17,179 nucleotides of DNA from a virus (taxonomy: Duplodnaviria > Heunggongvirae > Uroviricota > Caudoviricetes): the IMG/VR virus record IMGVR_UViG_2537562215_000014; one strand, written 5' to 3'. The position numbers were made by a program, and so were the translations under genes. The notes under the pieces are model-generated. The model did not search any database, was not told where the DNA came from, and saw only the letters and a list, made by a program, of their open reading frames with translations. Positions 1 through 17,179 of this stretch are shown here, piece after piece. Position 1 is the stretch's first letter. Each line of letters starts with the position of its first letter.

Positions 1-1224
1 GTGGCACGGACAACACGTCCTCTGACCAACACTGAAATTCTGCGGACTAAAGCTTTAGAGAAGGATCTAACACTGCATGATGGCGAGGGGCTTTTCCTGA
101 TAGTGAAAACAAACGGGAAAAAACTCTGGCGTTTCCGTTATCAACGTCCAACAACAAAACAGCGAACAATGATGGGGCTTGGTGCCTTCCCTGCCTTATC
201 GCTTGGTGATGCCCGAAGGTTAAGGGCTGAATACCTTTCCTTATTAGCCAATGGAATTGACCCGCAAATACAAGCTGAAGTTGCAGAGGAGCAGCAGAAA
301 ATCGTGCTTAACAGTATTTTTTCAGCGGTCGCCTCTAACTGGTTCTTGCTCAAAAGCAAAAGTGTTACTCCTGATTACGCAAAGGATATTTGGCGCTCAT
401 TGGAAAAAGACGTACTCCCTGCTATTGGCGAGATCCCCGTTCAGCAAATCAAAGCCCGAACACTAGTTGAAGCACTTGAACCAATCAAAGCTCGCGGAGC
501 ACTGGAAACAGTTCGTCGCCTAGTACAACGTATTAACGAAATAATGATTTATGCGATTAACACTGGTTTGATTGATACTAATCCAGCATCAGGCATTGGT
601 ATGGCTTTTGAAAAACCCAAAAAGCAAAACATGCCAACACTGCGGCCTGAAGAGTTACCTAAGCTGATGCGTTCTTTAGCTATGTCAAATCTTTCTATTC
701 CAACTCGCTGTCTAATTGAATGGCAACTCCTGACACTTGTACGCCCATCTGAAGCTGCCGGTGCTCGATGGGTAGAGATCGATCTTGAAACAAAACTATG
801 GACAATTCCCGCAGAACGGATGAAAGCCAAGCGTGAGCACATTGTTCCTTTATCACCACAAGCGTTAAATATACTCGATGTTATGAAGCCAATTAGTGGC
901 CACCGAGAATTCATTTTTCCCAGCAGATGTGACCCGAAGAAGTCAATGAACAGTCAAACGGCGAATGCTGCTTTGAAACGGATAGGTTATGGAGGTAAAC
1001 TGGTTGCCCATGGAATGCGCTCAATAGCCAGCACGGCAATGAATGAATTTGGATTCAACCCAGATGTAATTGAAGCTGCACTTGCTCATATTGATAAAAA
1101 TGAAGTTCGACGCGCGTACAACCGCTCAGTTTATCTTACTCAGCGTAAAGAATTGATGGAATGGTGGGGGGAACAATGTGTTTCGCAATTCTCATCTATT
1201 AGAAATAAGTGGCCCGTCTCCTAA
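1..1224 (+). CDS. int: P4-family tyrosine integrase (CP4-57/IntA-like); begins with GTG at window base 1, so the true start may lie upstream
   Basis: 407-aa ORF. N-terminal arm-binding pattern LHDGEGLFLIVKTNGKKLWRFRY; C-terminal catalytic region RPSEAAGARW ... HGMRSIASTAM ... RRAYNRSVYL (Arg, His-x-x-Arg, Tyr). N-terminus MARTTRPLTNTEI closely resembles my recollection of E. coli IntA. Sits at the element end, reading inward. Confidence 0.92.
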   Translation: MARTTRPLTNTEILRTKALEKDLTLHDGEGLFLIVKTNGKKLWRFRYQRPTTKQRTMMGLGAFPALSLGDARRLRAEYLSLLANGIDPQIQAEVAEEQQKIVLNSIFSAVASNWFLLKSKSVTPDYAKDIWRSLEKDVLPAIGEIPVQQIKARTLVEALEPIKARGALETVRRLVQRINEIMIYAINTGLIDTNPASGIGMAFEKPKKQNMPTLRPEELPKLMRSLAMSNLSIPTRCLIEWQLLTLVRPSEAAGARWVEIDLETKLWTIPAERMKAKREHIVPLSPQALNILDVMKPISGHREFIFPSRCDPKKSMNSQTANAALKRIGYGGKLVAHGMRSIASTAMNEFGFNPDVIEAALAHIDKNEVRRAYNRSVYLTQRKELMEWWGEQCVSQFSSIRNKWPVS

Positions 1225-1267
1225 TTTGGTAGTTTTGTTCATTTGAGATACATAGCAAGGATTTGAA

Positions 1268-2371
1268 ATGTACATTCAAGATATTCCTAAAGATTCAAAA
1301 TTTTGGGTTGTTCGATCTGGTGATGGCGGTATGTTTTATGACCACTTTGTGCACAACTCCATAGCAGCTATTGGGCACATTGACGCTATGGAATTTAGCG
1401 ATCAGACCCTCAGTAATAAAGATGAAGTGATTAAACTCGTTTATAATTACAAACAAACTTTGCTTGAAAAAAAGGAAACACTTGCATCTGCATCTAATAA
1501 AGCAGGCCAAGTTCTACGTTTCATTAATGAAATGTCAGTCGGTGATATAATTATAACTCTAGATGCAAGGAGAATAGTGGTCGGCAGGATCATATCTGGT
1601 CCTTATAAAGATATGGAAAATGTAACATTACTCAATGTTGATGGAACAACAGATGAAAAATTGCTTAAATTTACCCTTAGACGTAAAGTTGAATGGGGAA
1701 AAACGCAGTTTCGTGACAAACTTCCATTAGCCATAAATAATAGTTTCAGGGCTAATCAAACTGTTTTCTCAGCAAACGAGCACTGGAAAGAGCTTAATCA
1801 CTGGTTATCTGTTGCATTTATATCAGATAATGAAGCTTATATTTCCTCACGGATTGAGCAAACAGAAGGGATTAACAATCTTGACATTGCTCAATACTCC
1901 ATAATAATAAATAAAATTGAAGCTATTGCTCAAACAATCGCTAACAATGACAACTATCATTTCGATGATGATAAATTATTATCTCTCTTTGAAGATACAT
2001 ATAAAGAACTAAGAAAAAGTAGAACATTTACGGTAACGACACAACAGGTATTTCTTTCACCAGGAGATCTTTGGGCAAAAATATCTGGAAGCCGTAAAAA
2101 AAGCCTGTTAGTTATCTGCACATTTCTTATAATGTTCAATATTGAGCCATCTTTCGCAGATGAAAATGACAAAATATTTTTCGACAACAACTATGAAGCA
2201 ATATCTTTATTAATTAATAAAGTAAAACATGATGAAAACTTTGAGGAAGTAAAAAATGGATTAGCATTAAAAGTTCCTGCACAAAAACTAAACACAAAAA
2301 ACACCTCTACAAACCCCAATAAAAAACGCTATGATGATGATGTAGAACCAGACGACTTTGAAGGCATTTAA
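1268..2371 (+). CDS. hypothetical protein, cargo gene A (367 aa, soluble, acidic C-terminal tail); no family assignable by eye
   Basis: ATG at 1268 preceded by AAGGA (1256..1260, 7-nt spacing). Long uninterrupted ORF in visibly AT-rich DNA, where chance ORFs are rare. Starts 43 nt after the int stop. No Walker A, HNH or GS..DxD motif seen. Confidence 0.85.
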   Translation: MYIQDIPKDSKFWVVRSGDGGMFYDHFVHNSIAAIGHIDAMEFSDQTLSNKDEVIKLVYNYKQTLLEKKETLASASNKAGQVLRFINEMSVGDIIITLDARRIVVGRIISGPYKDMENVTLLNVDGTTDEKLLKFTLRRKVEWGKTQFRDKLPLAINNSFRANQTVFSANEHWKELNHWLSVAFISDNEAYISSRIEQTEGINNLDIAQYSIIINKIEAIAQTIANNDNYHFDDDKLLSLFEDTYKELRKSRTFTVTTQQVFLSPGDLWAKISGSRKKSLLVICTFLIMFNIEPSFADENDKIFFDNNYEAISLLINKVKHDENFEEVKNGLALKVPAQKLNTKNTSTNPNKKRYDDDVEPDDFEGI

Positions 2372-2375
2372 GAGG

Positions 2376-3029
2376 ATGATGAAGTTCATAAAAAAATGGT
2401 GGGATAACCATGATAAATCTAATAATTTTTTATCAGGTATCCATTACATCGTCATTTCGCTAGCTATCATAATTGGTGGCGCGTGGTCGTTGTATACCTT
2501 TGACGCATTACAAATGGCCAAAAATGCGGAAATCCAACTAAAAAAGGCTAACGAAGATTTAAAACAAATAAAAGAGCAAATTAAGGGCACTGACTCTAGC
2601 AGTATTGCTATTAATGTTATCCCGTTAAAAACACAGCTAGGAATGATTATTAATGTAACCATAAAAAATAACGGCAAACGACCATTATCCTTTGACACAT
2701 CCAAAGGAGCTTTAACTGTGTACAAAGTAAGCGCAAATGGCGATAAAGTTGAACAATCTCAATCTTTTACACCAAATCTCTATACATCTTTGAGAGATAA
2801 AAAACACTATCCAGAATCAAAAAGTAAATCATTATCAAAGACACATGTTTTAATAGGAGCAGAAAAAACCCTTAGCTATATTGTTGGATTAAATAAGCCA
2901 GGCGTTTATTATATTACATTTAGGTCAACACCAGATGATAATTTTGACACAGAAGAATTGAAAAACAAAAAACCTGTAGAATGGTTCGCTTCTTCATATG
3001 TTGAAATTACCCCACAAAAATATAAATAA
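2376..3029 (+). CDS. hypothetical bitopic membrane protein, cargo gene B (~217 aa; track ORF starts at TTG 2358, ATG 2376 or 2379 more likely)
   Basis: ATG 4 nt after the gene A stop (TAA 2369..2371), with AAGAGG at 2370..2375. Basic N-terminus MMKFIKKWWDNHDK, one hydrophobic helix LSGIHYIVISLAIIIGGAWSLYTF (about nt 2430..2498), then a charged heptad-like segment and a beta-rich C-terminal domain. AT-rich like gene A. Confidence 0.8.
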   Translation: MMKFIKKWWDNHDKSNNFLSGIHYIVISLAIIIGGAWSLYTFDALQMAKNAEIQLKKANEDLKQIKEQIKGTDSSSIAINVIPLKTQLGMIINVTIKNNGKRPLSFDTSKGALTVYKVSANGDKVEQSQSFTPNLYTSLRDKKHYPESKSKSLSKTHVLIGAEKTLSYIVGLNKPGVYYITFRSTPDDNFDTEELKNKKPVEWFASSYVEITPQKYK

Positions 3030-3335
3030 AAAAAATAAGAAGCACACAAATGTTTTTATAGCCTAAAAAACCGCCACAATATTTAACAGCCACATTAAAA
3101 CACATGCATTATGTTAATGCATTAAATGAAATTAATCCTCCATCCACTCCGTAAAAATAACACTATCATAAACACATCAATAGAGTCATCCAAAACACAA
3201 AAATAACTTTAACTCAATAATATTAAACATTCCCCTTTCTAATCACTACTCTAACTTATTGTCGTAGATGAAGCGAGCAAACTCAATTGCGCTCTCAGAC
3301 TTTGAAAAAATTGAACACATCAACATTTGCGCGCA

Positions 3336-3354
3336 GTGCTTTCCCCGCCTCGCC
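3336..3354 (-). other. cos site: P2/P4-type 19-nt cohesive end (GGCGAGGCGGGGAAAGCAC on the minus strand)
   Basis: Plus strand reads GTGCTTTCCCCGCCTCGCC, the exact reverse complement of the P2/P4 cohesive-end 19-mer as I recall it. It lies downstream of psu, as in P4, inside a GC-rich block (3330..3500). Confidence 0.65.
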
Positions 3355-3518
3355 CGCCCGCTTTGCAGGGCGGTTTTAATGCAGTTGCACTGACACGCTC
3401 AGGCCGCGCCGGGAATGGCGTGTTTTGTTGATAATGGGGCGGGAAAACGCATGCAAAGTCATGCACCTTATCGATGCATGGCTTTTTTCAGTAAAAACAA
3501 GCGGGTTTTCGGGGAATT

Positions 3519-4091
3519 TTACACAGACTGACGTGATGCCAGTTGCGCACTTTTACGCGAAAAAATCATGTTCTGCGCAGGGGTGAATTTTTCACGGCAG
3601 TCATCCACCGAAGCCGCGTCAGGCCTGAATCCGATGGTCGTTAAAATGTCGCTATCCTGTGCGGAATAATTAATTTTTTCCCCCTTCGCAAGCCAGGACA
3701 GAAGGGCTTCACGCAAGGCATCTGTGGCACGCTGTATGGCACAGTTTCGGGCAATGGCCGTCAGTTCACTGTAGCCCATCAGCTCCGGTGCCAGTGCGGC
3801 CGCCAGTACTGTGCCGTGCTGCTGCATAAAATCATTCAGCCGGTCGCGGATGCTGATGTGCTGAACGGCTTCATGCGAACGAATATAACGACCGGCGGCC
3901 TGATTCACCTGCCATTTTCTGACTTCGATAATATTGCGTAATTCGTCCAGGCGACTGACGTTTCTGCCTTCTCCTGACAGAAGCCGCAGGTATTCCTGTT
4001 CGGCCGCTGCCAGCTCATTTTTGCGTTGCAGCCATGCTGCTTTGTTATTCTGACAGGTGTCAAAGGCCTGCTGTAAGGCTGTGCTTTCCAT
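3519..4091 (-). CDS. psu: Psu, polarity suppression / capsid decoration protein (Rho antagonist)
   Basis: 190 aa, the same length as P4 Psu. N-terminus MESTALQQAFDTCQNNKAAWLQRK matches my recollection of P4 Psu. Last gene of the sid-delta-psu operon. Confidence 0.88.
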   Translation of the reverse strand: MESTALQQAFDTCQNNKAAWLQRKNELAAAEQEYLRLLSGEGRNVSRLDELRNIIEVRKWQVNQAAGRYIRSHEAVQHISIRDRLNDFMQQHGTVLAAALAPELMGYSELTAIARNCAIQRATDALREALLSWLAKGEKINYSAQDSDILTTIGFRPDAASVDDCREKFTPAQNMIFSRKSAQLASRQSV

Positions 4092-4164
4092 CGTTATCTC
4101 TTTCTCATCATGCTGAAGAATAAAAATACGGTGTGCGGCGACGGCTGGTGTTAACCGGCAGCCC

Positions 4165-4665
4165 TCATTCCAGACGCAGCGAATATGATTGTGTTTTTAA
4201 CCGTACTGGCGGCAGTTCCTGTTTTTCATGCAGGCTTTCTGCCAGTTCGTCCGGTGTGACCGGGCGGACAATGAAGCGGTTGATGGTCTGAAGCGTTTTA
4301 AACACCAGACCACAGCCCGGATCCGTGCACACATAAAAACGCTCGGTGACTTCCTGAGACAGACGCCGCGATGTTCTTGACAGTGCAAGGCCTTTACATC
4401 TCCGACAACAATATCCGGTAACAAGCATTCTTTTCGGGCGTTTCATACTGCCGGAGGCTGACGTCAGTGAATCGCGGTATCTCTGTTTGCCTGAAATGTA
4501 TTCCATTCCTGAATCTTTACTGTCAGAGAAAAAGCTTTCACTCGCTTCAAATGTCGCAGAGCAATAAATATTCCGGCACTGTGCAATCATTATCTTGGTG
4601 CCATCGTCCATGAAATGTGCGCGGCGGGTGTGAGCAACATGTCCACACGACGGGCAGTAAATCAT
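4165..4665 (-). CDS. delta: Delta, late-gene transactivator (tandem Ogr-like zinc-finger modules)
   Basis: 166 aa (P4 Delta is 166 aa). Two Ogr-type Cys motifs: CPSCGH...CRNIYCSATF and CCRRCKG...CTDPGCGLVF. Start codon overlaps the sid stop (ATGA at 4662..4665). Confidence 0.88.
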   Translation of the reverse strand: MIYCPSCGHVAHTRRAHFMDDGTKIMIAQCRNIYCSATFEASESFFSDSKDSGMEYISGKQRYRDSLTSASGSMKRPKRMLVTGYCCRRCKGLALSRTSRRLSQEVTERFYVCTDPGCGLVFKTLQTINRFIVRPVTPDELAESLHEKQELPPVRLKTQSYSLRLE

Positions 4666-5396
4666 GACAGCAGTCCTCTGGCCTTAAGCTCTGCTCCCTG
4701 CTGGTCTATTTTGTCCTGCCACACCTTGCGCTGTGCCGGTGTGCCTGCCACCTCATAATCCATGTGCGGAAGTGTTGCCGCTGACAGTCCGGTCAGCCGG
4801 AGAACCGGCTCGCCGCTGAGGCTGATTTGCATCTGTTTAATTTTCTGTTCCAGCGATGATTTCACCTGCTGCATGACAGCCTTATCGGGTGCGACGTAGC
4901 CCTGATGGCCGGTGGTGTTGGCGAGCGGATTTTCCTGTACCAGAATGCTCAGATGCATTGCCCGGACAAGCGCCTCACAGGTTTCATTCAGGGCGTGTTC
5001 CAGCTCATGCTCTGCATACAGACTCAGAAGGTGATGATGTGCCTTCCGGTAGGCGGTGGCCGTGCTGTCACACGCCCCTTTCAGGCGTTCACGTTCAAAA
5101 TTCAGCACCACGGCCAGATTGTCATATTCCTGTACCAGCTCCCGGCGTGCCACGCGCTCAATGTGGCGCTGTTTCAGCTCGTCGCTCAGGACACCACCGG
5201 CTGCACGAAAGGATGTGCGCCAGTCATCAGCGTCATTTCCGTCGGCCTGCGCCAGCGCATTTTTTTCCTGCTCTGCCCGTTCAATGGCCGTGACGGTCTC
5301 ATCCATCAGTCGGGCGTTCTCAAGGTGGGCGGCTCTGGCCTTTTCCAGTTGTGCCAGTGCGGGTTGCAGATATTCAGGGATGGTGTTGTCAGACAT
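4662..5396 (-). CDS. sid: Sid, external capsid size-determination scaffold protein
   Basis: Track ORF starts at GTG 5414. ATG at 5396 gives 244 aa (P4 Sid is 244 aa) and has GAGGAG 8 nt upstream. Alpha-helical, Ala/Glu/Leu-rich composition. First gene downstream of the late-promoter dyad. Confidence 0.85.
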   Translation of the reverse strand: MSDNTIPEYLQPALAQLEKARAAHLENARLMDETVTAIERAEQEKNALAQADGNDADDWRTSFRAAGGVLSDELKQRHIERVARRELVQEYDNLAVVLNFERERLKGACDSTATAYRKAHHHLLSLYAEHELEHALNETCEALVRAMHLSILVQENPLANTTGHQGYVAPDKAVMQQVKSSLEQKIKQMQISLSGEPVLRLTGLSAATLPHMDYEVAGTPAQRKVWQDKIDQQGAELKARGLLS

Positions 5397-5468
5397 TTTC
5401 CGGCTCCTCGTCACTTCAGGTTAAGAAAATTGTGACGTACACCGGACAACAACACGACGCATTGCAGA

Positions 5469-5486
5469 TGTGCCAGCCCTGACACA
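5469..5486 (-). promoter_or_regulatory. Psid late promoter activator site (Ogr/Delta-type TGT-N12-ACA dyad)
   Basis: TGT GCCAGCCCTGAC ACA. Centre is ~55 bp upstream of the inferred sid transcription start (~5420), matching P2/P4 late-promoter architecture. Confidence 0.6.
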
Positions 5487-5565
5487 GGAGACTCATCCTC
5501 AGACCGGCAAGCCAGGAAAAGGTCGCAGGAAAAACCGGCTTACTGTTTGTTTTTTTATATTTTAC

Positions 5566-5669
5566 TGTTCACCTCTGTTCACCATAAGAAAAAAGATAAG
5601 TAATACAGTAAGTTAAAGGGTGAATAATCGCAGTAATGACTGTTCACCGTCTGTTCACCACTGTTCACC
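5566..5669. repeat. Replication-origin-like iteron cluster: five direct TGTTCACC octamers plus one degenerate inverted copy
   Basis: TGTTCACC at 5566, 5576, 5641, 5652 and 5662; GGTGAATA at 5618. P4 alpha binds type I iterons of this sequence. Lies about 4.8 kb from the crr repeats. Confidence 0.65.
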
Positions 5670-5828
5670 CGTTGATGGGCTTTTTGTGCTGTTTATTACT
5701 GTTTGTTTTTATTAATTCGCCGGGAATGAATAAGAAAAAACGATTTGTATTTCACTATAAAAATTACGAATTGCTTTAAGTGGCTTTAAATGACTTTAAG
5801 TGGAGATGAACAAAAAATACACAAGCAT

Positions 5829-5846
5829 TGTAAGGCTGCCGGAACA
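5829..5846 (+). promoter_or_regulatory. PLL-like late leftward promoter activator site (TGT-N12-ACA dyad)
   Basis: TGT AAGGCTGCCGGA ACA. Placing the start ~55 bp downstream (~5892) puts it ~396 bp upstream of the PLE-like start (~6288), close to the ~400 bp spacing I recall for P4 PLL/PLE. Confidence 0.5.
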
Positions 5847-5948
5847 AATCCCCCCTGTTGCGTCTGCCAAAAATATTCACAAAATAAAGCGCTACCCGAA
5901 GCCGGACGGACTTATCCGGTGCTGTATGGACATTAACGAGGTAGCCCG

Positions 5949-6215
5949 ATGCAAGCTGTTTTTTCTTCCCCGTCTCCCGCCCCTGTGACGCCACTGATGC
6001 CGCTGCCGGACATCACGCAGGAGCGTTTTTTACGTCTGCCGGAAGTGATGCACCTGTGCGGCCTGTCACGCTCGACAATCTATGAACTCATCCGTAAGGG
6101 GGAATTTCCGCCGCAGGTGAGTCTTGGCGGTAAAAATGTGGCCTGGCTGCACTCTGAAGTCACCGCATGGATGGCCGGGCGCATTGCCGGACGCAAACGG
6201 GGGTATGACGCATGA
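5949..6215 (+). CDS. vis: Vis/AlpA-family helix-turn-helix regulator (excisionase-like)
   Basis: 88 aa. Motif [47 protein letters not shown] is typical of AlpA/Vis. GAGG lies 9 nt upstream of the ATG. First gene after the PLL-like site. Confidence 0.85.
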
Positions 6216-6250
6216 TGATGCCCGCTCTGCAAAAACTCCCTTTTTCTGGC

Positions 6251-6280
6251 TTGCCTTTTTCCGGCATTTGCGGATATAGT
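6251..6280 (+). promoter_or_regulatory. PLE-like sigma70 promoter (-35 TTGCCT, 18-bp spacer, -10 TATAGT)
   Basis: Hexamers at 6251..6256 and 6275..6280, immediately downstream of vis, where P4 PLE is expected. Confidence 0.5.
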
Positions 6281-6343
6281 CTTTCCGTTGCCGCAAAATC
6301 GGCAGCCGGGCGTGAGAACCCGTGTAACTCGAAGGCGACATAT

Positions 6344-6365
6344 GACGCGCCATGCGTCTTTTTTT
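6344..6365 (+). terminator. Short hairpin followed by U7 in the PLE leader (candidate attenuator / immunity terminator)
   Basis: GACGCG-CCA-TGCGTC (6-bp stem including one G-U) followed by TTTTTTT at 6359..6365, ~60 nt downstream of the predicted PLE start. Confidence 0.35.
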
Positions 6366-6604
6366 GTGTCGCAATCAACGCCACAGAGCGCCAGATTATG
6401 GTGTGGCGTGTGGTTTGCCGTGCAGGTATGATCCTGTTCGCAATCGCATGTTATGCCACTGAGTCAATGGTAGCTCAGGCGGGGCAGCCTCCGGGCTGGC
6501 CGGTATTCTTCGAGGCCGGTATTCTCACCCCCGTCTGGGCTATCGCCATCGAGCGTGAGAACTCCGGCGATAGCAGTTATTTGCTACTCGAAGGAGGCTG
6601 CCTT

Positions 6605-6802
6605 ATGGCTACAACCCTTACCCCCTCACACCCTGAATTTGTCTTTGTGTTTGCGGCTGTCCGTCGCGCAGACCGTCATCCCCGTATCTGTATGCTTCGC
6701 ACCGTCGCCGGTGATGAACGCAGTGCCCGCCGTTCCTTTGTCCGTGACTATGTGCTCTCCCTTGCTGCCCGTCTGCCGGTGGTGGAGGTGTCCCGTGCGT
6801 AA
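6605..6802 (+). CDS. small hypothetical protein of the left operon (65 aa)
   Basis: ATG at 6605 with AAGGAGG (6591..6597, 7-nt spacing). Its stop overlaps the next gene's start, suggesting translational coupling. Confidence 0.55.
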
Positions 6803-7082
6803 TAAAAAAGCCCCTCAGACCGTCTCAGCGCGTCATGACGCCTGTGAACACCTCAGCATTGAGGCTTACCATAAGCTCAACCGCGCCAGCGCCGTATCCC
6901 AGTTTGTTGGGGGTGATTTGATTCACCGTGAACTCTCCGGCCTGCATCAGCTCTACATTCCGCATATTTTCAGCTACCTGAATGAAGATATTGATTTTGT
7001 GCTGAATGAGCTGAAAGCCAAAGGCCTGTGCCGCGATTTTCTCGCCCAGCAGAAAGACCGGGGAGACAGGACGCATGTTTGA
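6795..7082 (+). CDS. small protein (~95 aa) at the position of P4 epsilon; function inferred from position only
   Basis: GTG at 6795 with GGAGGTG 4 nt upstream. The stop overlaps the start of the 151-aa ORF (7075). The track ORF is longer (starts 6555), but the SD supports the 6795 start. Confidence 0.5.
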
Positions 7083-7530
7083 TTTTCCCCAGCCCGGTGA
7101 GATTTACCGTTCTGCCGGTTTTCCCGATGTGGCCGTGGTCGGCATTCTGGAAGACGGTATTCCGTGGGAAATGCCGTACCGCTGCCCGGACATTGTCTGG
7201 AACCCGTACCGCCGTAAATTCAGTATCCTTGTGCGTATCCTCGCCGACGGGCGCACCACAGACATCCCGCTGGGGCGTTTTCTGCGGGAATTTACCTGTG
7301 ACCGTCCTGACCTGTTTAAACGCAGCCCCGTAAACCGGCATGCGGTACTGAAAGAAATGGCCGGAGACCCGGAATTACAGAAATGGCGGGAGAAATATCT
7401 GGATATTTACCCGCAGGACCCTGTTCCGGTCAGCCGGGCGGCACCGGTGGCGCGGGAATGGCGGGAAATTCCCCGCACGGAGCCTGACCCGGAAATCACC
7501 CCGGATAACAGTTACCGCAATTATCTGTAA
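7075..7530 (+). CDS. hypothetical protein (151 aa; same length and position as P4 orf151)
   Basis: ATG at 7075 with GGGAGA upstream. Codon usage matches the backbone; co-oriented in the alpha operon. Confidence 0.75.
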   Translation: MFDFPQPGEIYRSAGFPDVAVVGILEDGIPWEMPYRCPDIVWNPYRRKFSILVRILADGRTTDIPLGRFLREFTCDRPDLFKRSPVNRHAVLKEMAGDPELQKWREKYLDIYPQDPVPVSRAAPVAREWREIPRTEPDPEITPDNSYRNYL

Positions 7531-7665
7531 TTAAAAAACGACACCCGAAAAATTAAATGTGCGTATTCGCGCAGGGATACGCACGTCTTCAGGAGACGCA
7601 GATATGCCTTATCAGTTAATGCAACCGGCACGGAATGCAGTCATCTGTCACAGGGAGGAAAGCAA

Positions 7666-7986
7666 ATGAAAACACCCTTACCGCCCGTCTTACGCGCAGC
7701 CCTTTACCGTCGTGCTGTCGCCTGTGCCTGGCTGACCGTGTGCGAACGTCAGCACCGCTACCCGCATCTCACCCTTGAATCACTGGAGGCGGCCATCGCC
7801 GCTGAGCTGGAGGGCTTTTATCTGCGCCAGCACGGTGAGGAAAAAGGGCGTCAGATAGCCTGTGCCCTGCTGGAAGATTTAATGGAATCCGGCCCCCTGA
7901 AGGCCGCGCCGTCGCTGTCCTTTCTCGGGCTGGTTGTGATGGATGAACTCTGTGCCCGTCACATAAAAGCGCCGGTACTGCACTGA
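7666..7986 (+). CDS. hypothetical protein (106 aa; same length and position as P4 orf106)
   Basis: ATG at 7666 with GGGAGG 7 nt upstream. Lies immediately upstream of alpha. Confidence 0.75.
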
Positions 7987-8000
7987 AGGAGAACAACACC

Positions 8001-10334
8001 ATGAAAATGAACGTAACCGCCACCGTCAGCCATGCGCTCGGCCACTGGCCGCGTATTCTCCCGGCGCTGGGGATTCAGGTGCTGAAAAACCGTCATCAGC
8101 CCTGTCCGGTCTGTGGCGGGAGGGACCGCTTCCGTTTTGATGACAGGGAGGGGCGCGGCACCTGGTACTGCAATCAGTGTGGTGCCGGTGACGGCCTGAA
8201 ACTGGTTGAAAAGGTGTTTGGTGTTTCCCCGTCCGACGCGGCCGCAAAGGTGGCTGCCGTGACCGGCAGTCTGCCCCCGGCTGACCTGGCAGTGACGGCC
8301 GCCGCCGTTGCTGAAACAGACGCTGCCCGGAAGAACGCCGCCGCACTGGCACAAACCCTGATGGCAAAAACCCGTCCCGGAACCGGTAACGCCTACCTGA
8401 CCCGCAAGGGCTTTCCCGGCCGGGAATGCCGGATGCTGACCGGCACACACAGAGCCGGTGGCGTGAGCTGGCGCGCCGGTGACCTTGTGGTGCCACTGTA
8501 TGACGACAGCGGCGAACTGGTTAACCTTCAGTTAATCAGTGCTGACGGCCGTAAGCGCACCCTGAAAGGCGGACAGGTCAGGGGCACCTGTCACATCCTT
8601 GAAGGACAGAATCAGACCGGAAAACGTCTGTGGATAGCGGAGGGATACGCGACCGCACTTACCGTACATCACCTGACCGGTGAAACGGTGATGGTGGCGC
8701 TTTCTTCCGTGAACCTCCTTTCTCTGGCCAGCCTTGCCCGGCAGAAGCATCCGGCCTGTCAGATTGTCCTTGCCGCTGACCGTGACCTCAGCGGTGACGG
8801 CCAGAAAAAAGCCGCCGCAGCCGCAGATGCGTGTGAAGGTGTTGTTGCACTGCCGCCGGTCTTCGGTGACTGGAATGATGCCTTCACGCAGTACGGCGGG
8901 GAAGCCACCCGTAAGGCCATTTATGATGCTATCCGGCCACCGGCTGAAAGCCCGTTCGACACCATGAGCGAAGCAGAGTTTTCCGCCATGAGTACCAGCG
9001 AAAAGGCCATGCGTATCTATGAGCATTACGGCGAGGCGCTCGCGGTTGATGCCAACGGCCAGCTTCTGTCCCGTTATGAAAATGGTGTCTGGAAGGTGCT
9101 GCCGCCACAGGACTTTGCCCGGGATGTGGCCGGGCTGTTTCAGCGTCTGCGCGCGCCGTTCTCCTCCGGGAAGGTGGCCTCCGTGGTGGACACCCTGAAG
9201 CTGATTATTCCGCAGCAGGAAGCCCCCTCCCGCCGCCTGATTGGCTTTCGTAACGGCGTGCTCGACACGCAGAACGGCACGTTCCACCCGCACAGTCCGT
9301 CACACTGGATGCGTACCCTGTGCGATGTGGATTTCCCCCCGCCGGTGGAAGGGGAAACGCTGGAAACCCACGCCCCCGCGTTCTGGCGCTGGCTTGACCG
9401 TGCCGCCGGTGGCCGTGCGGAAAAACGCGACGTGATTCTGGCCGCACTGTTTATGGTGCTGGCAAACCGCTACGACTGGCAGCTCTTTCTGGAGGTGACC
9501 GGTCCCGGCGGCAGCGGCAAAAGTATCATGGCCGAAATAGCCACCCTGCTGGCCGGGGAGGATAACGCCACGTCGGCCACCATTGAGACGCTGGAATCCC
9601 CGCGTGAACGTGCCGCGTTAACTGGCTTCTCACTGATACGCCTGCCGGACCAGGAAAAATGGAGCGGCGACGGTGCCGGACTCAAGGCCATCACCGGCGG
9701 CGATGCGGTGTCCGTGGATCCGAAATACCGGGATGCGTACTCCACGCATATCCCGGCGGTGATTCTGGCCGTGAACAATAACCCGATGCGCTTCACCGAC
9801 CGCAGCGGCGGCGTGTCACGCCGGCGGGTGATTATTCACTTCCCGGAACAGATAGCCCCGCAGGAGCGCGACCCGCAGCTTAAGGACAAAATCACCCGCG
9901 AGCTGGCGGTCATCGTGCGTCACCTGATGCAGAAGTTCAGCGACCCGATGCTCGCCCGGTCACTGCTTCAGTCCCAGCAGAACTCAGACGAGGCGCTGAA
10001 CATCAAACGGGATGCCGACCCGACGTTTGATTTTATCGGCTATCTGGAAACCCTGCCGCAGACCAGCGGCATGTATATGGGGAACGCCAGTATCATCCCG
10101 CGTAATTACCGTAAATACCTCTATCACGCCTATCTGGCCTACATGGAGGCAAACGGCTACCGGAATGTACTCAGTCTGAAAATGTTCGGGCTGGGGCTGC
10201 CGGTGATGCTGAAGGAATACGGGCTGAATTACGAGAAGCGCCATACCAAACAGGGGATACAGACCAACCTGACGCTGAAAGAGGAAAGCTACGGCGACTG
10301 GCTGCCAAAATGTGACGACCCTGCAACAGCCTGA
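8001..10334 (+). CDS. alpha: Alpha: primase-helicase replication protein with origin binding (P4 alpha family)
   Basis: 777 aa, the same length as P4 alpha. N-terminal zinc motif CPVCGG...YCNQCG, TOPRIM-like EGYATAL and AADRD, Walker A GPGGSGKS (nt 9501..9524). AAGGAG RBS. Followed by TGTTCACC iterons. Confidence 0.92.
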   Translation: MKMNVTATVSHALGHWPRILPALGIQVLKNRHQPCPVCGGRDRFRFDDREGRGTWYCNQCGAGDGLKLVEKVFGVSPSDAAAKVAAVTGSLPPADLAVTAAAVAETDAARKNAAALAQTLMAKTRPGTGNAYLTRKGFPGRECRMLTGTHRAGGVSWRAGDLVVPLYDDSGELVNLQLISADGRKRTLKGGQVRGTCHILEGQNQTGKRLWIAEGYATALTVHHLTGETVMVALSSVNLLSLASLARQKHPACQIVLAADRDLSGDGQKKAAAAADACEGVVALPPVFGDWNDAFTQYGGEATRKAIYDAIRPPAESPFDTMSEAEFSAMSTSEKAMRIYEHYGEALAVDANGQLLSRYENGVWKVLPPQDFARDVAGLFQRLRAPFSSGKVASVVDTLKLIIPQQEAPSRRLIGFRNGVLDTQNGTFHPHSPSHWMRTLCDVDFPPPVEGETLETHAPAFWRWLDRAAGGRAEKRDVILAALFMVLANRYDWQLFLEVTGPGGSGKSIMAEIATLLAGEDNATSATIETLESPRERAALTGFSLIRLPDQEKWSGDGAGLKAITGGDAVSVDPKYRDAYSTHIPAVILAVNNNPMRFTDRSGGVSRRRVIIHFPEQIAPQERDPQLKDKITRELAVIVRHLMQKFSDPMLARSLLQSQQNSDEALNIKRDADPTFDFIGYLETLPQTSGMYMGNASIIPRNYRKYLYHAYLAYMEANGYRNVLSLKMFGLGLPVMLKEYGLNYEKRHTKQGIQTNLTLKEESYGDWLPKCDDPATA

Positions 10335-10341
10335 CCCACCT

Positions 10342-10365
10342 GACCGGCATCTGCCGGTCTTTTTT
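10342..10365 (+). terminator. rho-independent terminator of the alpha operon
   Basis: GACCGGC-ATCT-GCCGGTC stem-loop followed by TTTTTTT, 8 nt after the alpha stop. Confidence 0.7.
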
Positions 10366-10380
10366 TATCCCGACATCCCC

Positions 10381-10685
10381 CGAAGGTGAACAATCCACTG
10401 TTCACCCTTCACCGTATATTCACCCGTTATCACACTGAAATTAAAAGAGAAAAACGAAAGGTGAACAGTGTGAACAATCAAATCAAAAAAAACTTTTTTC
10501 TTCCTGAGTGATTTCAGTACGGGGGATTAATCACCGGTATGAGTCACACCGGCAGAATGCCGGAGGTGAAGAATCGAATGTTCACCCTTCACCCATTATT
10601 CACCACCTATCACTCTGAAATAAAAGGAGAAAAAAGAAAGGTGAACAGTGTGAACAGTTCTTTCGAAAAAAAATTTTTTTCCTGT
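10381..10685. repeat. crr-like cis replication region: two ~125-bp direct repeats (10381..10505 and 10561..10685), each with TGTTCACC/GGTGAACA iterons
   Basis: The two copies are near-identical at 180-bp periodicity. Each contains GGTGAA, TGTTCACC, TTCACC, and GGTGAACAGTGTGAACA followed by an A-run/T-run. Matches the P4 crr description (two ~120-bp repeats next to alpha). Confidence 0.7.
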
Positions 10686-10818
10686 ACGATATAGCATCAA
10701 TCCAAGTAAAAATGCGCTTTCATTTCACATTAACTTACAGCCATTGGTATACGATTAGGTATACGCACAAAAACTGAATTAAACAAAATCATTAAAAATC
10801 AAAGCAATACAATATTTA

Positions 10819-10840
10819 TTCAAACTCCGCCAGCCCACCA
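10819..10840 (+). other. candidate attR core (resembles the 3' end of ssrA/tmRNA, ending CCACCA)
   Basis: TTCAAACTCCGCCAGCCCACCA versus my recollection of the ssrA 3' end TTCAACTCCCGCCAGCTCCACCA (a similar but imperfect match by eye). No T-arm partner upstream, so it is a fragment, not a gene. Upstream are two direct GGTATACG copies (10746, 10758) that could be integrase arm sites. Confidence 0.35.
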
Positions 10841-10967
10841 ATCATGATTGGACGGTATAAGGACAACACCAATAAAAACAGGAAGTTAGCAGTCTCAGCA
10901 GGACACCGACCAGACGGTGAAGAGACATAAAAGGATACGCAAAGGAGCCGCGGCTCCTGGTGACATG

Positions 10968-10991
10968 AAAGCCCACAGATGTGGGCTTTTT
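10968..10991. terminator. hairpin terminator between the element and the autotransporter 3' end (possibly bidirectional)
   Basis: AAAGCCCAC-AGAT-GTGGGCTTT followed by TT on the plus strand; on the minus strand it lies 10 nt after the autotransporter stop (11001). Confidence 0.55.
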
Positions 10992-11000
10992 CGTTGATGG

Positions 11001-11372
11001 TCAGAACGACCAGTTCACACCAGCTACCCCGTTCCACGGGGATTCCACACCGGCACCATGGCTATACCCCACCCCAAGATGCCCGCTTAACGTACTGCTG
11101 AATGAGGCTTTAATACCTGCCTGGTATATTCCACGTCTGCCCGACAAATCATTGACGAAATTACCGTCACTATTCACTTTCACCCGGTTATCATCGACAA
11201 ATTCTTTGCGCACAGCCGCCTTCAGCCACGGCTCAACTTCCATACCGTTCCCCAGACGCATGTTGTAACTCAGCGTTGCACCCAGTTCACGATATAAACT
11301 GCGGGTATCGACTGATTTCGATTCCATGCCATTGGATAAATGATATTCAGGGTTATCAGCGATGAACCCCCG
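11001..11372 (-). pseudogene. autotransporter beta-barrel C-terminal segment, out of frame with the passenger segment (ends ...GVNWSF)
   Basis: C-terminal aromatic-x-Phe motif NWSF typical of type Va autotransporters. This frame is open back to the stop at 11373..11375; it is shifted relative to the 626-aa ORF at a C5 run (11367..11371). Confidence 0.75.
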
Positions 11373-13294
11373 TTAACGATGCATACGGCGTCAGGTTCCA
11401 GTTACCATCGGTAAATCGCATCCCGGTTTCAATGTGACCGCCCAGCCCGTTGCTGCGATAACTGCCGTTGGCGGCTCCACCGCTGCCAACCGTGGAGTCG
11501 CGAGCTTCGGTACCTGCTAATACCAATAAATTACCGCCATTTTCCAGCAACATATTGGTCGCTAAATTGCCGGAAATGGAAAAAGTGCCGTACTGGTGAG
11601 TACCGCTGATTTCAATACCGTTAGCCGTGCTCGTCTGGAGAGCGGCACCGCTGTTCTGGACGATATCTGTCGCTTTGCCATTATCGTTAACTGTCAGCGT
11701 ACCGCCTTCATTGATCTTTGTTTTTATTGCCTCTCCGTTAGCTGAAACTGTTTGTATTCCGCCGTCGTTAATCGTTGTCTCATTCGCCACCCCCTCGACG
11801 ATTTGTTCGCCGCCGGTGAGCGTCGTGCCTGTCGCAGTGGCTTTTGTTTTGACGATCTCCCGTCCGCCCGTATTGACCTGTGTTTTGTCAGAAGAGGTGT
11901 CTGACTCCATGGTTAACACGCCGCCATTTGCCAGCAGGATATTGTTCGCCGCACCCTGCTCGATGCTGAACGCGACGCCATCCGCGCGTGTTCCTGTGAC
12001 CCGCGTCGCCCTGGTGGTTGCAACCAAAGCGTCCTGGCTACTCTGCTGTATCCCCGTTGCGCTGCCTTTCTCCCGCACATCGAGTGTGCCGCCGTCATTA
12101 AGCACCGAGTTTTCAGCCAGACCGCCCTCATTAACTACCTGTGAACACCCATTAATAATGGAACCTTCCGCTGTCCCGTTTGCCATAATTTGTTGTAGGC
12201 CAGAGACGATATCGGTATTGATTGCCTTACCATAATTCTGAACGGTTTGCGTGCCACCATTGATGTGTGTTTTCTCTGTTGACCCACCATCAACAATTTG
12301 TTCACCACTTTCGATATTTGCCTCAGTGGCTAATCCATATACCGTTTGCTTGCCACCTTTGATATTTGCTTTATCAGAAGTGGCACTGGCATATATTGTT
12401 TGGGTGCCAGCACTATTGAGTACAGTGCCAACATCTTTTCCATAAACATCCATTTTGCCGTTGGCATTAATAATCGTATCAACTGCCCGGGAACCAGTGA
12501 CGACTGTTAATGAGCCAGCGTTTTCCAGCACTACATTTTTAGCTTCTGAATTCCTGATGTAGAAAGCATCACCATAACTGTTGGTTCCTTCGATAAGGGT
12601 TCCGGAAGTTGTGGAAGCAATTAATGCGCCGCCGGATTGTTGCTCAACATGCTTAGCCTCACCACCGTCCTGAACCTCCAGAACGCCACCATTATTAAGT
12701 CTGGTGGTATCTGTTTTAGCCTCCTTCTGGACAATCAGCTTACCGCCAGCATCAACGGTAGTATTTTTCGCCGAGGTTTTAGCCACTACCGTCAGTTCGC
12801 CGGTATTTTCCAGCACAACATAATTAGCCTCCCCTCCGGTAATAGTGAAGTGAGAGAGCTTGTTGTATCCTTCAATATCAGTCCCTGCGCCCGTGTTGGC
12901 AACTAAAGCACTGCCCGTCTCCTGGTTAACCCCATGTGCAATACCACCGGTATAGACAATCAGCGAGCCTCCGGCGCTAATATTGCTGCCAGTTGCCGTA
13001 CCATCTTTCTCAACAACCTGCCGGCTCCCGGAGGATATAATTGTCGTGTCAGCTTTCCCGCCGCTCTTGATATTTTGCGTTCCGCCGTTGATATTGGTAC
13101 CCGTGGCAATACCATGATTATTAATATTCTGTGTACCACCATTGATTATGGTATTGGTCGCGTTTCCGGTAACATCCATTACCCCGCCGTTATCTATTCG
13201 GGTCGCATCAGCTTTAGCATTCGTTAAAACTGACATTGTTCCTTTATCTTTAATAATCGTCTTGTTTGCCGAACCATATGCGTTTATGTCTAAA
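11356..13294 (-). pseudogene. AIDA-type autotransporter adhesin, passenger segment distal to the IS insertion
   Basis: 626-aa ORF rich in ~19-aa Gly/Thr/Asn passenger repeats (TTINGG, GGTQ, NVVLENAG). The reading frame continues seamlessly across the IS insertion point. Confidence 0.8.
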
Positions 13295-13302
13295 TGTAGT
13301 GG

Positions 13303-15523
<2,221 letters not shown>

Positions 15524-15861
15524 AAATTTCATCCTCTGAAAAGTGAATACTGAGTAGCGTTTAAGCGACCTTAGCTTTGCTGCAACATCAGCCCACAGGC
15601 ACCAGACCAGGGGATTCATCCTGAAGAGACAGCGCAAGTGTATTGTGTTCACCGCTCATCAAAGACATCATGATGAAATGATGATATTCCGCATAAGAAT
15701 GAGGCATTTTTTAAACGCAGTGCGCTGAAGTGTGGTTGGATAAAAAAGTCAATCCATTCAGGAAATACGGGCGTATTCTTTTCTTTCGACAATGAGGCCG
15801 TTGGCAAAATAAAATGATTTACATAATCGTTTCTGATGAATATCTTCTGCTCACATAAAAA

Positions 15862-16190
15862 TCACACAATAACTTTGAGATCGCAGATTGTTTTACTTTT
15901 ACAGCATTCGTCCCCCCATTGTTGGGCAAATATAGATTGGGCCAGAGCACGAAAGTTAATACCACGTTTGCACAGCTCCTCCAACAGCACGACAAGATGC
16001 CACATACTGCGCCCCAGTCGGTTCGGTTTACAGACTACCCGTGCGTCCACCGCCGATAATGTCCTGACCAGTTTTTTCAGTCCGGACCTCCTGCCACGGT
16101 TTTACGTTGAAGTGGTAACCCTGAGCACGCAGTTCTTCAGTCAGGCGTGGTGTACCGTAACCCTATTATTGATGGGTAAGATCAAAAATA
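15862..16190 (-). pseudogene. serine recombinase (DNA invertase, Pin/Hin/Gin family) remnant
   Basis: Fragment ...VVCKPNRLGRSMWHLVVLLEELCKRGINFRALAQSI aligns with the invertase catalytic-domain motif VVWKLDRLGRS...L..EL.ERGI.F.SL.DSIDT. In-frame stop and frameshift upstream; diverged C-terminus. Confidence 0.65.
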
Positions 16191-16289
16191 CTTTCAGGCA
16201 GCTAAGGAAAGTTGAACCAGACATTAGAATAAATATTTCAACCAATTACAGCACCAATTCAGACACCGCCAGCTCAACAAATAAATCAA

Positions 16290-16322
16290 GGGGTTACGTG
16301 AAAGCGTAGCCCCTTTTTCTTT
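16290..16322. terminator. hairpin terminator downstream of the AT-rich pentapeptide-like ORF (possibly bidirectional)
   Basis: GGGGTTACG-TGAAAG-CGTAGCCCC followed by TTTTTCTTT on the plus strand. On the minus strand it lies ~115 nt after the ORF stop (16436). Confidence 0.55.
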
Positions 16323-16435
16323 GGTAGTGGCAGCAAAATGGTTGTAGTGTAAAAAATAATCCCGTTTAATCAATCAATAATACATATTGTTTCAATCTAC
16401 GTTATTATCTCTTTGTAAAAATAGCCATTTATTAA

Positions 16436-17179
16436 TCATTGAAAACTGCTTTTAGAACTTGATACAACGGGACTAGTCACAACAGGACTATTCTCAACGG
16501 GATCATCCTCAGAGGAACTATCATCAAAGTCATCATCCATAAATAAAATATCATCGAATGGTGCCACGCCCGTGATGAGTTTTATTTTATTATTACGATC
16601 AGTCAAGACTCCACTTAAACCGTTTTCGCTCACAGGTTTTAATGATTTTTCATTACTCTTGTTGTAAGCAGGCGCATTAAAAATACACGGAGTATCAAGA
16701 TCAAACAATGACGTTCCCCAGTTCACATATTGAATATCATAGTTACTGAAGTTCTGTCCAGAAAAGAAGCATCCCTTAAAATCCAATCCACCTAAATTAT
16801 ATAAACCATCCTCTTCTTTTTGGAGAGTAATGTTAATTTTGGCTATCTCCCGGACATCATCGCCATTTTTATATTTGAATACCGTTTCAAGATTTTCCCC
16901 ACACAGTTTGACTTCTGGAAATAATTTGAAATCAAAGCCTATATTATTATGTATCAACGTAGATGAACAAAAGATGGAGAAAGCTTGCAGTGCTGAATTA
17001 TAGCTTTCGATTTTATCCTGAGGCTGCGCTCTTGGTAAAAACTCATAGCAACATTCATAAAAATTAAGTAGAAACTCTGAAGACCTTCCATTTTTATCAA
17101 ATAATATCCCCTTGAACTCATTCACAAACGCATCTTTTTTTTCTTGAATATCTATGTGGTGTTCCTTTGACTCTGACAA
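16436..17179 (-). CDS. hypothetical AT-rich protein with pentapeptide-repeat-like core and acidic/Ser-rich C-terminus; 5' end lies beyond the window
   Basis: 247 codons open to the window edge in AT-rich DNA. Segment NLGGLDFKGCFFSGQNFSNYDIQYVNWGTSLFDLD resembles pentapeptide repeats. C-terminus DDDFDDSSSEDDPVENSPVVTSPVVSSSKSSFQ. Confidence 0.6.
   Translation of the reverse strand: MSESKEHHIDIQEKKDAFVNEFKGILFDKNGRSSEFLLNFYECCYEFLPRAQPQDKIESYNSALQAFSIFCSSTLIHNNIGFDFKLFPEVKLCGENLETVFKYKNGDDVREIAKINITLQKEEDGLYNLGGLDFKGCFFSGQNFSNYDIQYVNWGTSLFDLDTPCIFNAPAYNKSNEKSLKPVSENGLSGVLTDRNNKIKLITGVAPFDDILFMDDDFDDSSSEDDPVENSPVVTSPVVSSSKSSFQ

Follow-up and report, generated by a model that had tools for sequence, protein, structure and literature searches.

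Putative Restriction-Type Recognition Domain Joined to a Predicted Membrane-Associated Module in a Two-Gene Cargo Cassette of a P4-Like Satellite: A Candidate Anti-Phage System

The A-B Pair Occupies the Variable Slot of a P4-Like Satellite

The 17,179-nucleotide (nt) stretch of viral DNA analyzed here (IMG/VR record IMGVR_UViG_2537562215_000014; hereafter the window) holds two co-oriented genes between an integrase gene (int) and a cos site. We refer to these genes, which encode proteins of 367 and 217 residues, as A and B. An earlier annotation made from the DNA letters alone (the sequence-only reading) had presented them as an AT-rich two-gene operon carried as cargo by a P4-like satellite and as a candidate anti-phage system. 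Our analysis confirmed both frames, at positions 1268-2371 and 2376-3029, with 4 nt between them as described.

With respect to the element itself, the window contains the gene set of a P4-like satellite, namely a tyrosine integrase followed by psu, delta, sid, the C4 RNA region, and the alpha primase. The 19-mer of the P2/P4 cos site (GGCGAGGCGGGGAAAGCAC) is matched exactly at 3336-3354, with 0 matches in 200 shuffles, and the presence of a P4-type immunity RNA region at 6274-6550 confirms the satellite identity that had been proposed. The window DNA is 100% identical to that of Escherichia coli S1-INA-02-B, in which ssrA immediately precedes the element; in NZ_CP145662, int is directly downstream of ssrA.

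The base composition of the slot stands apart from its surroundings. Specifically, the G+C fraction is 0.30-0.35 over positions 1400-3200 (approximately 32% for the A-B pair) while int has 0.44 and the satellite backbone 0.50-0.64, in line with the reported drop to about one-third against a GC-rich background. A search for repeats and terminators over positions 1100-3600 returned nothing meaningful except hairpins at cos.

The slot also turns over among related elements. A 1.4-kilobase (kb) probe spanning cos, psu, and delta (3300-4700) had matches in 2256 of 5426 complete E. coli genomes, 896 of which extended over at least 80% of its length, and backbone homology in these other genomes starts at approximately position 3328 (probe position 28-30), just ahead of cos. 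The cargo (1225-3300) was found in only 2 of the 5426. Moreover, two sister satellites with backbones 98% identical to this one hold different cargo in the int-cos slot: a HEPN-domain protein in one and, at the same ssrA site, a DEAD/DEAH helicase in the other. Slot content therefore differs among near-identical backbones, which is what marks variable cargo at the P4 hotspot, and the placement of the pair in such a slot by the sequence-only reading was borne out. This int-psu variable locus of P4-like satellites was described by Rousset et al. 2022 (PMC9122126), and a 2026 survey of P4 elements found that six of eight randomly chosen loci without known defense genes protected E. coli (PMC13586616). 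The A-B pair is cargo of the int-cos/psu hotspot of a P4-like satellite.

A Joins a COG4127-Type N-Terminal Domain to a Family-Specific C-Terminal Module

The precomputed annotation of the collection lists PF28530/DUF8426 for A and its close homologues, and searches of A against Pfam and NCBIfam gave no match above threshold. An exhaustive HMMER search with an A profile returned 971 cluster representatives, 123 of them below 1e-30, with most top matches near full length; a word-indexed search with A gave 40 clusters. Across 85 members sharing 20-51% identity with A, residues W13, D93, G106, W143, S264, and G266 are invariant and R16, F27, H37, Q81, F85, R138, P153, and H178 nearly so. The sole match of A in PHROGs was the unknown-function family phrog_10226. 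Sequence searches of the PDB with A, with B, and with the A profile found no match, and no recurrent weak domain emerged when 85 and then 46 diverse A-family members were scanned singly against Pfam.

The match that places A came from PADLOC, whose PDLC04806 (PDC-S02) model aligns over its positions 3-155 of 324 with residues 11-177 of A (2.7e-18). The sequence-only reading had held that neither protein could be assigned to a family. This does not apply to A, the N-terminal half of which is a COG4127/PDC-S02 N-domain, whereas it stands for B, which has no family match above threshold. The N-terminal domain was modeled by AlphaFold2 (AF2) with a predicted local distance difference test score (pLDDT) of 80-94. 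In Salmonella, a protein encoded beside STM4491/STM4492 homologues matches PDC-S02 end to end (1e-82) and contains Mrr_cat (1.7e-23) after the N-domain; this protein is of the STM4490 type that founded COG4127. We take STM4491 and STM4492 to be BREX genes of S. Typhimurium LT2. The COG4127 N-domain received no fold assignment in the analysis of Feder and Bujnicki 2005 (PMC1189080), which also described COG4127 members without the Mrr part or with an unrelated domain at the C-terminus in its place.

In terms of fold, hhalign comparison of 28 A-family N-domains with a five-sequence EVE alignment gave a probability of 56.8% (E 1e-4), while 20 column-shuffled controls gave at most 0.7%. The Q..RF helix, the GD pair, a strand, and G.I..Y are in register between the two, and an extended alignment pairs YWVVR with YWLMK. 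The N-domain of A is probably PUA/EVE-like judging from these motifs, and the chances that it serves as a putative nucleic-acid sensor seem to us evenly balanced. Its other known partners are restriction nucleases and possibly McrB.

The C-terminal half of A has no detectable relative outside its own family, and Foldseek searches of PDB and BFVD yielded only one homologue. AF2 predicts helices here at residues 204-226, 234-250, 276-289, and 299-331. Following the invariant SPG motif, residues 276-300 read RKK-SLLVICTFLIMFNIEPSFA-DEN, and an uncharged hydrophobic run (median 16 residues) occupies this position in 74 of the 85 members. Lysine and arginine (K/R) average 1.6 per 6 residues before the run, and aspartate and glutamate (D/E) average 2.1 per 8 residues after it, as compared to 0.47 K/R. 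A small-x-small motif frequently closes the run, beyond which the protein continues for a median of 73 residues. Because this hydrophobic, charge-asymmetric segment (279-297) is conserved, A may be membrane-anchored, and the asymmetry would fit an N-in, C-out orientation; the earlier description of A as soluble is thus probably too simple. In the Pseudomonas branch of the family, the segment is an unambiguous transmembrane (TM)-like helix with a KD19 hydropathy value of 2.0-2.3, and in the enterobacterial branch its short length is such that it may be a buried or latent membrane-inserting helix. Members that are partnered with B share a tail motif consisting of F or V followed by P and, 8-10 residues on, a C-terminal I, L, or M (DDFEGI in the window). 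The tails of the Pseudomonas branch and of the solo branch described below depart from this motif.

Many Salmonella, Klebsiella, and Cronobacter genomes annotate just a C-terminal piece or an N-terminal fragment of A. One such fragment cluster (P0026), which begins at residue 104, is present on 228 contigs, and this pattern suggests that a frameshifted or split A allele is widespread in certain lineages. An internal start yielding a separate secreted C-terminal protein was considered and rejected, as no in-frame ATG or GTG lies near residues 241-288 and a single open reading frame (ORF) is conserved family-wide.

B Is a Single-Pass Membrane Protein with a Predicted Immunoglobulin-Like Domain

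The frame of B offers three starts: TTG 2358 (the longest frame), ATG 2376, and a second ATG at 2379. Translation from ATG 2376 leaves the 4-nt gap after the TAA of A. In Salmonella, the start of B differs by gene caller, giving either 233 residues overlapping A (8064-8765) or 216 residues (8115-8765). A word-indexed search with B returned 31 homologue clusters. No family in Pfam, NCBIfam, PADLOC, or PHROGs matched B above threshold; the Pfam DUF4352 model (PF11611) scored 18.1 bits, below its cut-off of 25.9, over residues 90-115 only.

B has one predicted TM helix (residues 18-40). In 15 of 16 homologues with a scored N flank, there are 2-5 K/R on the N side of this helix versus 0-2 in the 15 residues on its C side, and this bias argues for an N-in orientation with the bulk of the protein in the periplasm. 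The view of B as a small single-pass membrane partner thus holds as regards the single helix, but the predicted periplasmic bulk sets it apart from a minimal membrane peptide. The AF2 model (overall pLDDT 76) places an immunoglobulin (Ig)-like sandwich in this region. Foldseek against PDB, one of the checks that the sequence-only reading had proposed, succeeded for B, matching 3isy (B. subtilis Ipi, 2.1e-5), 4r4g (YcdA, 9.8e-4), and 3cfu (YjhA, 1.6e-3) with probability 1.00 and modest TM-scores of 0.2-0.58. The sandwich also resembles CARDB and PapD-like domains. As modeled, the fold of B is an Ig-like sandwich of the YcdA/YjhA (DUF4352) type.

A and B Are Inherited Together across Diverse Mobile Contexts

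Across loci, A and B are co-oriented and adjacent, separated by -4 to 27 nt. Homologues of both ORFs, down to approximately 30% identity, are present in at least 12 independent loci and always adjacent, so that neither is a chance ORF. The identities of A/B to the window proteins (89/92, 61/62, 57/54, 50/59, 39/43, 37/34, 32/33, 28/32, and 28/35%) show that the two diverge together, and the pair retains a G+C fraction of 0.32-0.37 in hosts with flanks of 0.39-0.58. The A and B clusters come from the same genera, specifically Escherichia, Salmonella, Pectobacterium, Buttiauxella, Plesiomonas, Pantoea, Providencia, Morganella, Proteus, Yersinia, and Aeromonas. Scans seeded with B found A upstream in every case, and a hidden Markov model (HMM) search of six-frame ORFs found a B homologue directly downstream of A in all A-B contexts listed below. 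The possibility that B is a chance neighbor was ruled out by this reciprocal co-occurrence and co-divergence. Co-conservation in P4-like elements and other hotspots, a check put forward in the sequence-only reading, is supported.

The distant contexts were established by 12 single-locus look-ups; a scan of species-representative genomes returned one locus. Among the contexts are P4-like satellites of Salmonella at another integration site, where the pair abounds (885 index blocks), a primase island of Yersinia that encodes AlpA and a D5-type primase, and Providencia prophages, in which the pair fills a moron slot of the siphophage tail operon between the tail chaperone and tape measure genes. 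Two islets also belong to the set, one in Aeromonas that has a cI-like repressor along with fragments of an integrase and one in Shewanella that has HNH, NERD, and RtcB-PrfH. A Vibrio chromosome, a metagenomic contig on which A-B lies beside Wadjet genes, and a short metagenomic contig with A-B complete it. Besides A-B, the Providencia slot houses a cluster of other morons at locus positions 5100-11900: one phage has a UmuD/UmuC-like pair there, and others have a YafO-toxin module together with unknown genes. At locus positions 2153-3951 in Shewanella algae, an RtcB-PrfH (RF-1 family) pair and NERD and HNH proteins lie within 6 kb upstream of A-B, and this neighborhood is probably a defense or repair islet.

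The partner of A is not fixed across the family. A membrane-protein gene always follows A in the enterobacterial, Vibrio, Aeromonas, and Pseudomonas branches. In the Pseudomonas branch, however, which was the main addition made by a word-indexed search with the N-domain profile, A has 397 residues, and the gene 1 nt downstream of it encodes a 191-residue polytopic membrane protein with no relation to B (hhalign 0.6%). The islet that holds these two genes also contains an HNH protein and a fragment of an integrase. Such swapping of unrelated membrane partners is as expected of a membrane effector or anchor. One A-family member bears the IMG name 'predicted Mrr-cat superfamily restriction endonuclease'. 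Apparent solo forms also exist. Motilimonas cestriensis (CP170335) has an A-family gene without B, and Streptococcus and Staphylococcus temperate phages and satellites encode solo A-like proteins between a repressor/ImmA-like protease and an integrase. Over locus positions 7015-10458, the Motilimonas gene is accompanied by a group II intron (RVT_1 + GIIM) immediately downstream, where B would be, and by a stand-alone EVE-domain gene approximately 500 bp upstream.

Comparison with Described Systems

The closest described relative of A is PDC-S02 (COG4127/STM4490 type), an unvalidated PADLOC candidate family. The two share homology over their N-terminal 160-180 residues or so, and both occur in defense islands and mobile elements. 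They part ways thereafter: the C-terminal half of PDC-S02 is an Mrr_cat PD-(D/E)xK nuclease, whereas A has the DUF8426 module with its hydrophobic segment instead, and PDC-S02 is a single gene, whereas B invariably comes after A in the branch made up of enterobacterial, Aeromonas, Vibrio, and Shewanella members. A second likeness, probably at the level of fold, is to the EVE/PUA-like readers of type IV restriction systems (EVE-McrB, EVE-HNH), with which the A N-domain has YW..K/R, Q..RF, GD, and G.I..Y in common. EVE domains in these systems are recognition modules fused to varied effectors, a role that A would share. Unlike EVE, the A N-domain contains a helical insertion of approximately 45 residues, and A has a histidine where PDC-S02 has the tryptophan of AIGW, which may match the tryptophan of the EVE WDG motif.

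In predicted architecture alone, A-B can be likened to abortive-infection pairs of a sensor and a membrane effector. RexA/RexB and the 'HAD-like hydrolase + TM' and 'RT-nitrilase + 1TM' systems (Rousset et al. 2022) likewise combine a larger cytoplasm-facing protein with a small membrane protein, and the Rousset et al. 2022 pairs share the P4 int-psu hotspot with A-B. These pairs have no sequence or domain relation to A-B, however, and A-B differs from them in the sizeable Ig-like domain that B has in the periplasm and in the possible insertion of A into the membrane. Relative to such hotspot cargo, we rate as new in A-B the restriction-type reader and the unusual predicted trans-envelope topology.

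The only functional precedent found for a membrane-anchored DUF4352 protein is Mpr of M. smegmatis, which reportedly makes cells resistant to phage D29 in a non-abortive manner and is escaped through mutations that map to a minor tail protein (PMC12596739, PMC9262609). Mpr and B each have a membrane anchor and, outside the cytoplasm, an Ig-like sandwich of DUF4352 type; both have been linked to phage resistance, and a cytoplasmic part is proposed to deal with DNA in Mpr as in A-B. Mpr is nonetheless a single polypeptide whose N-terminus is reported to be a nuclease, B scores below the Pfam DUF4352 threshold, and the organisms and envelope types differ. HK97 gp15, in turn, shares with the Providencia A-B its moron slot between tail chaperone and tape measure, as well as an inner-membrane location, but it is a single small YebO-like protein with no homology to A or B.

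The partial match of A to PDC-S02 was the sole match of the pair in PADLOC-DB v2, B giving none. A-B did not fit the published descriptions of PARIS, Rst systems, Crouga, Bandua, Aernus, Toga, Reve, and Hailong, and the searchable literature contained no description of A, B, the pair, or a matching P4 system and no function for DUF8426 or PDC-S02. We thus found no described defense family in PADLOC-DB v2 or the searchable literature that covers A-B. The sequence-only reading had named a confident match to a described defense family as a result that would count against it. Profile searches of Pfam and PADLOC gave only PDC-S02, for A, and because this family is a candidate rather than a validated one and half of its model is covered, it does not amount to such a match. 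A-B may correspond to one of the two untitled negative P4 loci of the 2026 survey (PMC13586616).

A Nuclease-Free Candidate Defense Module with a Proposed Membrane Output

Taken together, these observations make a defense function for A-B likely. As the best explanation overall, we tentatively propose that A-B is a mobile two-gene anti-phage module in which restriction-type recognition is wired to a membrane output. Supporting this proposal are the hotspot location, the mobility of the genes as a unit, the putative N-domain sensor, and the predicted membrane topology. A defense module is favored because a restriction-type recognition domain recurs joined to a membrane-acting module, usually with a small membrane partner. 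In this model, the COG4127/STM4490-type N-domain of A, probably PUA/EVE-like, would read phage nucleic acid, possibly in modified form. The nuclease would be replaced by the C-terminal module, with its SPG motif, its hydrophobic helix flanked by K/R and D/E, and its conserved tail, and this module would act at the inner membrane with co-translated B. Recognition would then cause an A/B membrane assembly to compromise the inner membrane and abort the infection, making A-B a nuclease-free relative of type IV restriction with membrane output. Damage to the membrane as the putative output is, when judged by itself, a possibility that we regard as somewhat doubtful.

A more specific arrangement, which we consider rather unlikely as it stands, is a trans-envelope immune complex. 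Here A would be ToxR-like and N-in, with an EVE-like reader inspecting DNA as it crosses the inner membrane and a C-terminus docking on B. The C-terminus of approximately 70 residues would be exported by way of the internal signal-anchor-like segment and possibly cleaved at the small-x-small site. Recognition of modified DNA would trigger a membrane event, either an entry block or depolarization ('type IV restriction without a nuclease'), and the core of A would be re-used with other membrane partners, as in Pseudomonas, or alone, as in Gram-positive prophages.

Several observations weigh against the proposed defense module. With respect to recognition, Pfam EVE has no match in A or the 85 members, Foldseek of the A model against PDB (the half of the proposed structural check that failed) gave no match, and the EVE-like assignment, weak at an hhalign probability of 57%, is suggestive, not conclusive. 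The only PDC-S02 representative assayed had no reported protection against T4, T5, or T7 (10.1101/2024.09.26.614923). With respect to output, no catalytic motif is evident in A or B, KD19 exceeds 1.6 in only 32 of the 85 A members, and the A segment is short (11-16 residues) and could be a buried core helix. The periplasmic domain of B, at approximately 150 residues, is unusual for a pure pore-forming effector. In addition, apparent solo members occur in Motilimonas and in Streptococcus and Staphylococcus prophages, and a promoter scan identified no consensus plus-strand site upstream of 1268.

The main rival is non-abortive superinfection exclusion, in which a trans-envelope A/B would block genome entry and the cell would survive. 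The Ig-like domain of B, perhaps together with the exported C-terminus of A, would engage the tail tip or tape-measure channel while the A reader captures or stalls the DNA. Periplasmic parts predicted in both proteins, the likeness of the B sandwich to the DUF4352-type YcdA and YjhA, and the precedent of Mpr, a C-terminal DUF4352 membrane protein whose non-abortive resistance is escaped through a minor tail protein (PMC12596739, PMC9262609), all speak for such a mechanism, as do the Providencia pairs in the HK97 gene 15 exclusion moron slot (PMC3594210) and the Gram-positive relatives of A, whose position between a repressor/ImmA-like gene and integrase is one expressed in the lysogen. Known exclusion proteins, however, usually consist of one small membrane protein that lacks a cytoplasmic reader domain, and B diverges at the rate of A, with no sign of the diversification that a receptor-like domain binding phage would be expected to undergo. 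The Pseudomonas branch, moreover, has an unrelated polytopic protein in the place of B, and the DUF4352 match of B is below the Pfam threshold; on balance, we regard an entry block as unlikely. We consider it more improbable still that A-B is a non-defense moron (envelope remodeling, ToxR/ToxS-like stress signaling, or a satellite-helper factor) that merely shares hotspots with defense genes. The A/B layout would, by analogy, parallel membrane regulators of the ToxR/ToxS type. In these, a cytoplasmic nucleic-acid-binding domain is followed by a TM helix and a short periplasmic part, and a small bitopic partner is encoded immediately downstream. Two of the eight P4 loci of unknown content also gave no protection (PMC13586616). 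A non-defense role is at odds with the other partners of the N-domain, restriction nucleases and possibly McrB, with contexts that are repeatedly of defense type (the P4 hotspot, Wadjet, HNH + NERD islets), and with a rare, patchy, AT-rich cassette in a slot that turns over with HEPN or helicase cargo.

Tight coupling of two genes, a membrane protein, and residence on a mobile element are also features of toxin-antitoxin or addiction cassettes, in which one product (e.g., B) would be toxic, the other would neutralize it, and the element would be stabilized; P4's own gop-beta-cII cargo is suspected of such behavior (PMC9122126). We view this as very unlikely, given that 367 and 217 residues are large for such a pair, that no toxin-antitoxin family matched in the four libraries (Pfam, NCBIfam, PADLOC, and PHROGs), that the A N-domain is of restriction-recognition type, and that a solo branch exists in the A family. 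Finally, the PADLOC match and the Mrr-cat name carried by one member could be taken to indicate that A is a plain PDC-S02/COG4127 type IV-like restriction endonuclease and B an unrelated neighbor. This reading was rejected because the nuclease is absent from A: the match is limited to positions 3-155 of the 324-position model, and no Mrr_cat or other PD-(D/E)xK match was found in A or in 131 relatives. As B is, in addition, always present and co-diverging, the plain-nuclease identity is refuted on the nuclease criterion, and we assign it only the slightest probability.

Should A-B prove protective, it would represent a defense family of about 1,000 representative sequences from Proteobacteria and Gram-positive prophages. 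If the proposed module is correct, type IV-style recognition domains would be interchangeable front ends for abortive or exclusion effectors, with recognition drawn from modification-dependent restriction enzymes and output at the membrane rather than through a nuclease. This would provide a function for Pfam DUF8426 and for the COG4127 N-domain, a question that dates from 2005, and would explain one more of the approximately 27% of P4 hotspots without a recognizable defense gene.

Feature Coordinates and Neighboring Sequence

The features of the satellite and of the two proteins are collected in Table 1.

Table 1. Positions of the features in the window, with the evidence for each
Feature	Position	Strand	Evidence or remark
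P4-type tyrosine integrase (int), left hotspot border	1-1224	+	Pfam Phage_integrase 4e-30, Phage_int_M, Arm-DNA-bind_3
int-A spacer, 43 nt	1225-1267	+	AAGGA ribosome-binding site 7 nt before the ATG of A
Gene A, 367 residues	1268-2371	+	ATG start; TAA 2369-2371; Pfam DUF8426 family
A residues ~10-190, COG4127-N / PDC-S02 N-domain, putative recognition domain	1295-1837	+	PADLOC PDC-S02 2.7e-18
A residues ~200-335, DUF8426-specific helical module at the C-terminus	1865-2272	+	AF2 helices
Invariant A motif S264-P-G266	2057-2065	+	S264 and G266 invariant in 85 members
A residues 279-297, signal-anchor- or signal-peptide-like hydrophobic segment	2102-2158	+	RKK-SLLVICTFLIMFNIEPSFA-DEN; KD19 1.73
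A residues 333-367, disordered tail with conserved acidic/hydrophobic C-terminus DDDVEPDDFEGI	2264-2368	+	pLDDT < 50
Gene B, 217 residues, single-pass membrane protein	2376-3029	+	ORF; ATG 2376 = RefSeq start
B residues 18-40, TM helix, N-terminus predicted inside	2427-2495	+	KD19 1.99
B residues 41-71, predicted periplasmic coiled-coil-like helical stalk	2496-2588	+	AF2 long helix 2-71, continuous over 12-71
B residues 76-211, predicted Ig-like beta-sandwich (DUF4352/YcdA/YjhA/Ipi/CARDB-like)	2601-3008	+	AF2 pLDDT 85-94
AT-rich non-coding cargo tail	3030-3327	.	G+C 0.30-0.36; ends where backbone homology starts
cos, right hotspot border; 19-mer GGCGAGGCGGGGAAAGCAC	3336-3354	-	Exact P2/P4 cos match
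psu	3519-4091	-	Pfam Psu 9.8e-89
delta	4165-4665	-	Satellite core gene
sid	4662-5414	-	Satellite core gene
P4 immunity RNA region	6274-6550	+	Rfam c4-a1b1 6274-6326, isrK 6287-6364, C4 antisense RNA 6463-6550
alpha primase-helicase	8001-10334		P4 core gene

A second record, IMG/VR UViG_2529293063_000018, is a 13.5-kb viral contig that carries A and B at the window coordinates with 100% protein identity, and the satellite has thus already been catalogued as a viral genome fragment. Just past alpha, positions 10335-11000 are AT-rich (G+C 0.36-0.39) and presumably form the right end of the satellite (attR). Further along, a match to the isrC small RNA (150 bits) at 14362-14484 on the minus strand maps inside a RefSeq frameshifted ypjA/ehaD autotransporter pseudogene (window 11001-15579, by coordinate mapping). 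Beyond the satellite, positions 15644-17179 contain, by RefSeq annotation, a fragment of a recombinase and a DUF5507 pseudogene interrupted by a stop codon, and this stretch looks like a decaying island adjoining the satellite.

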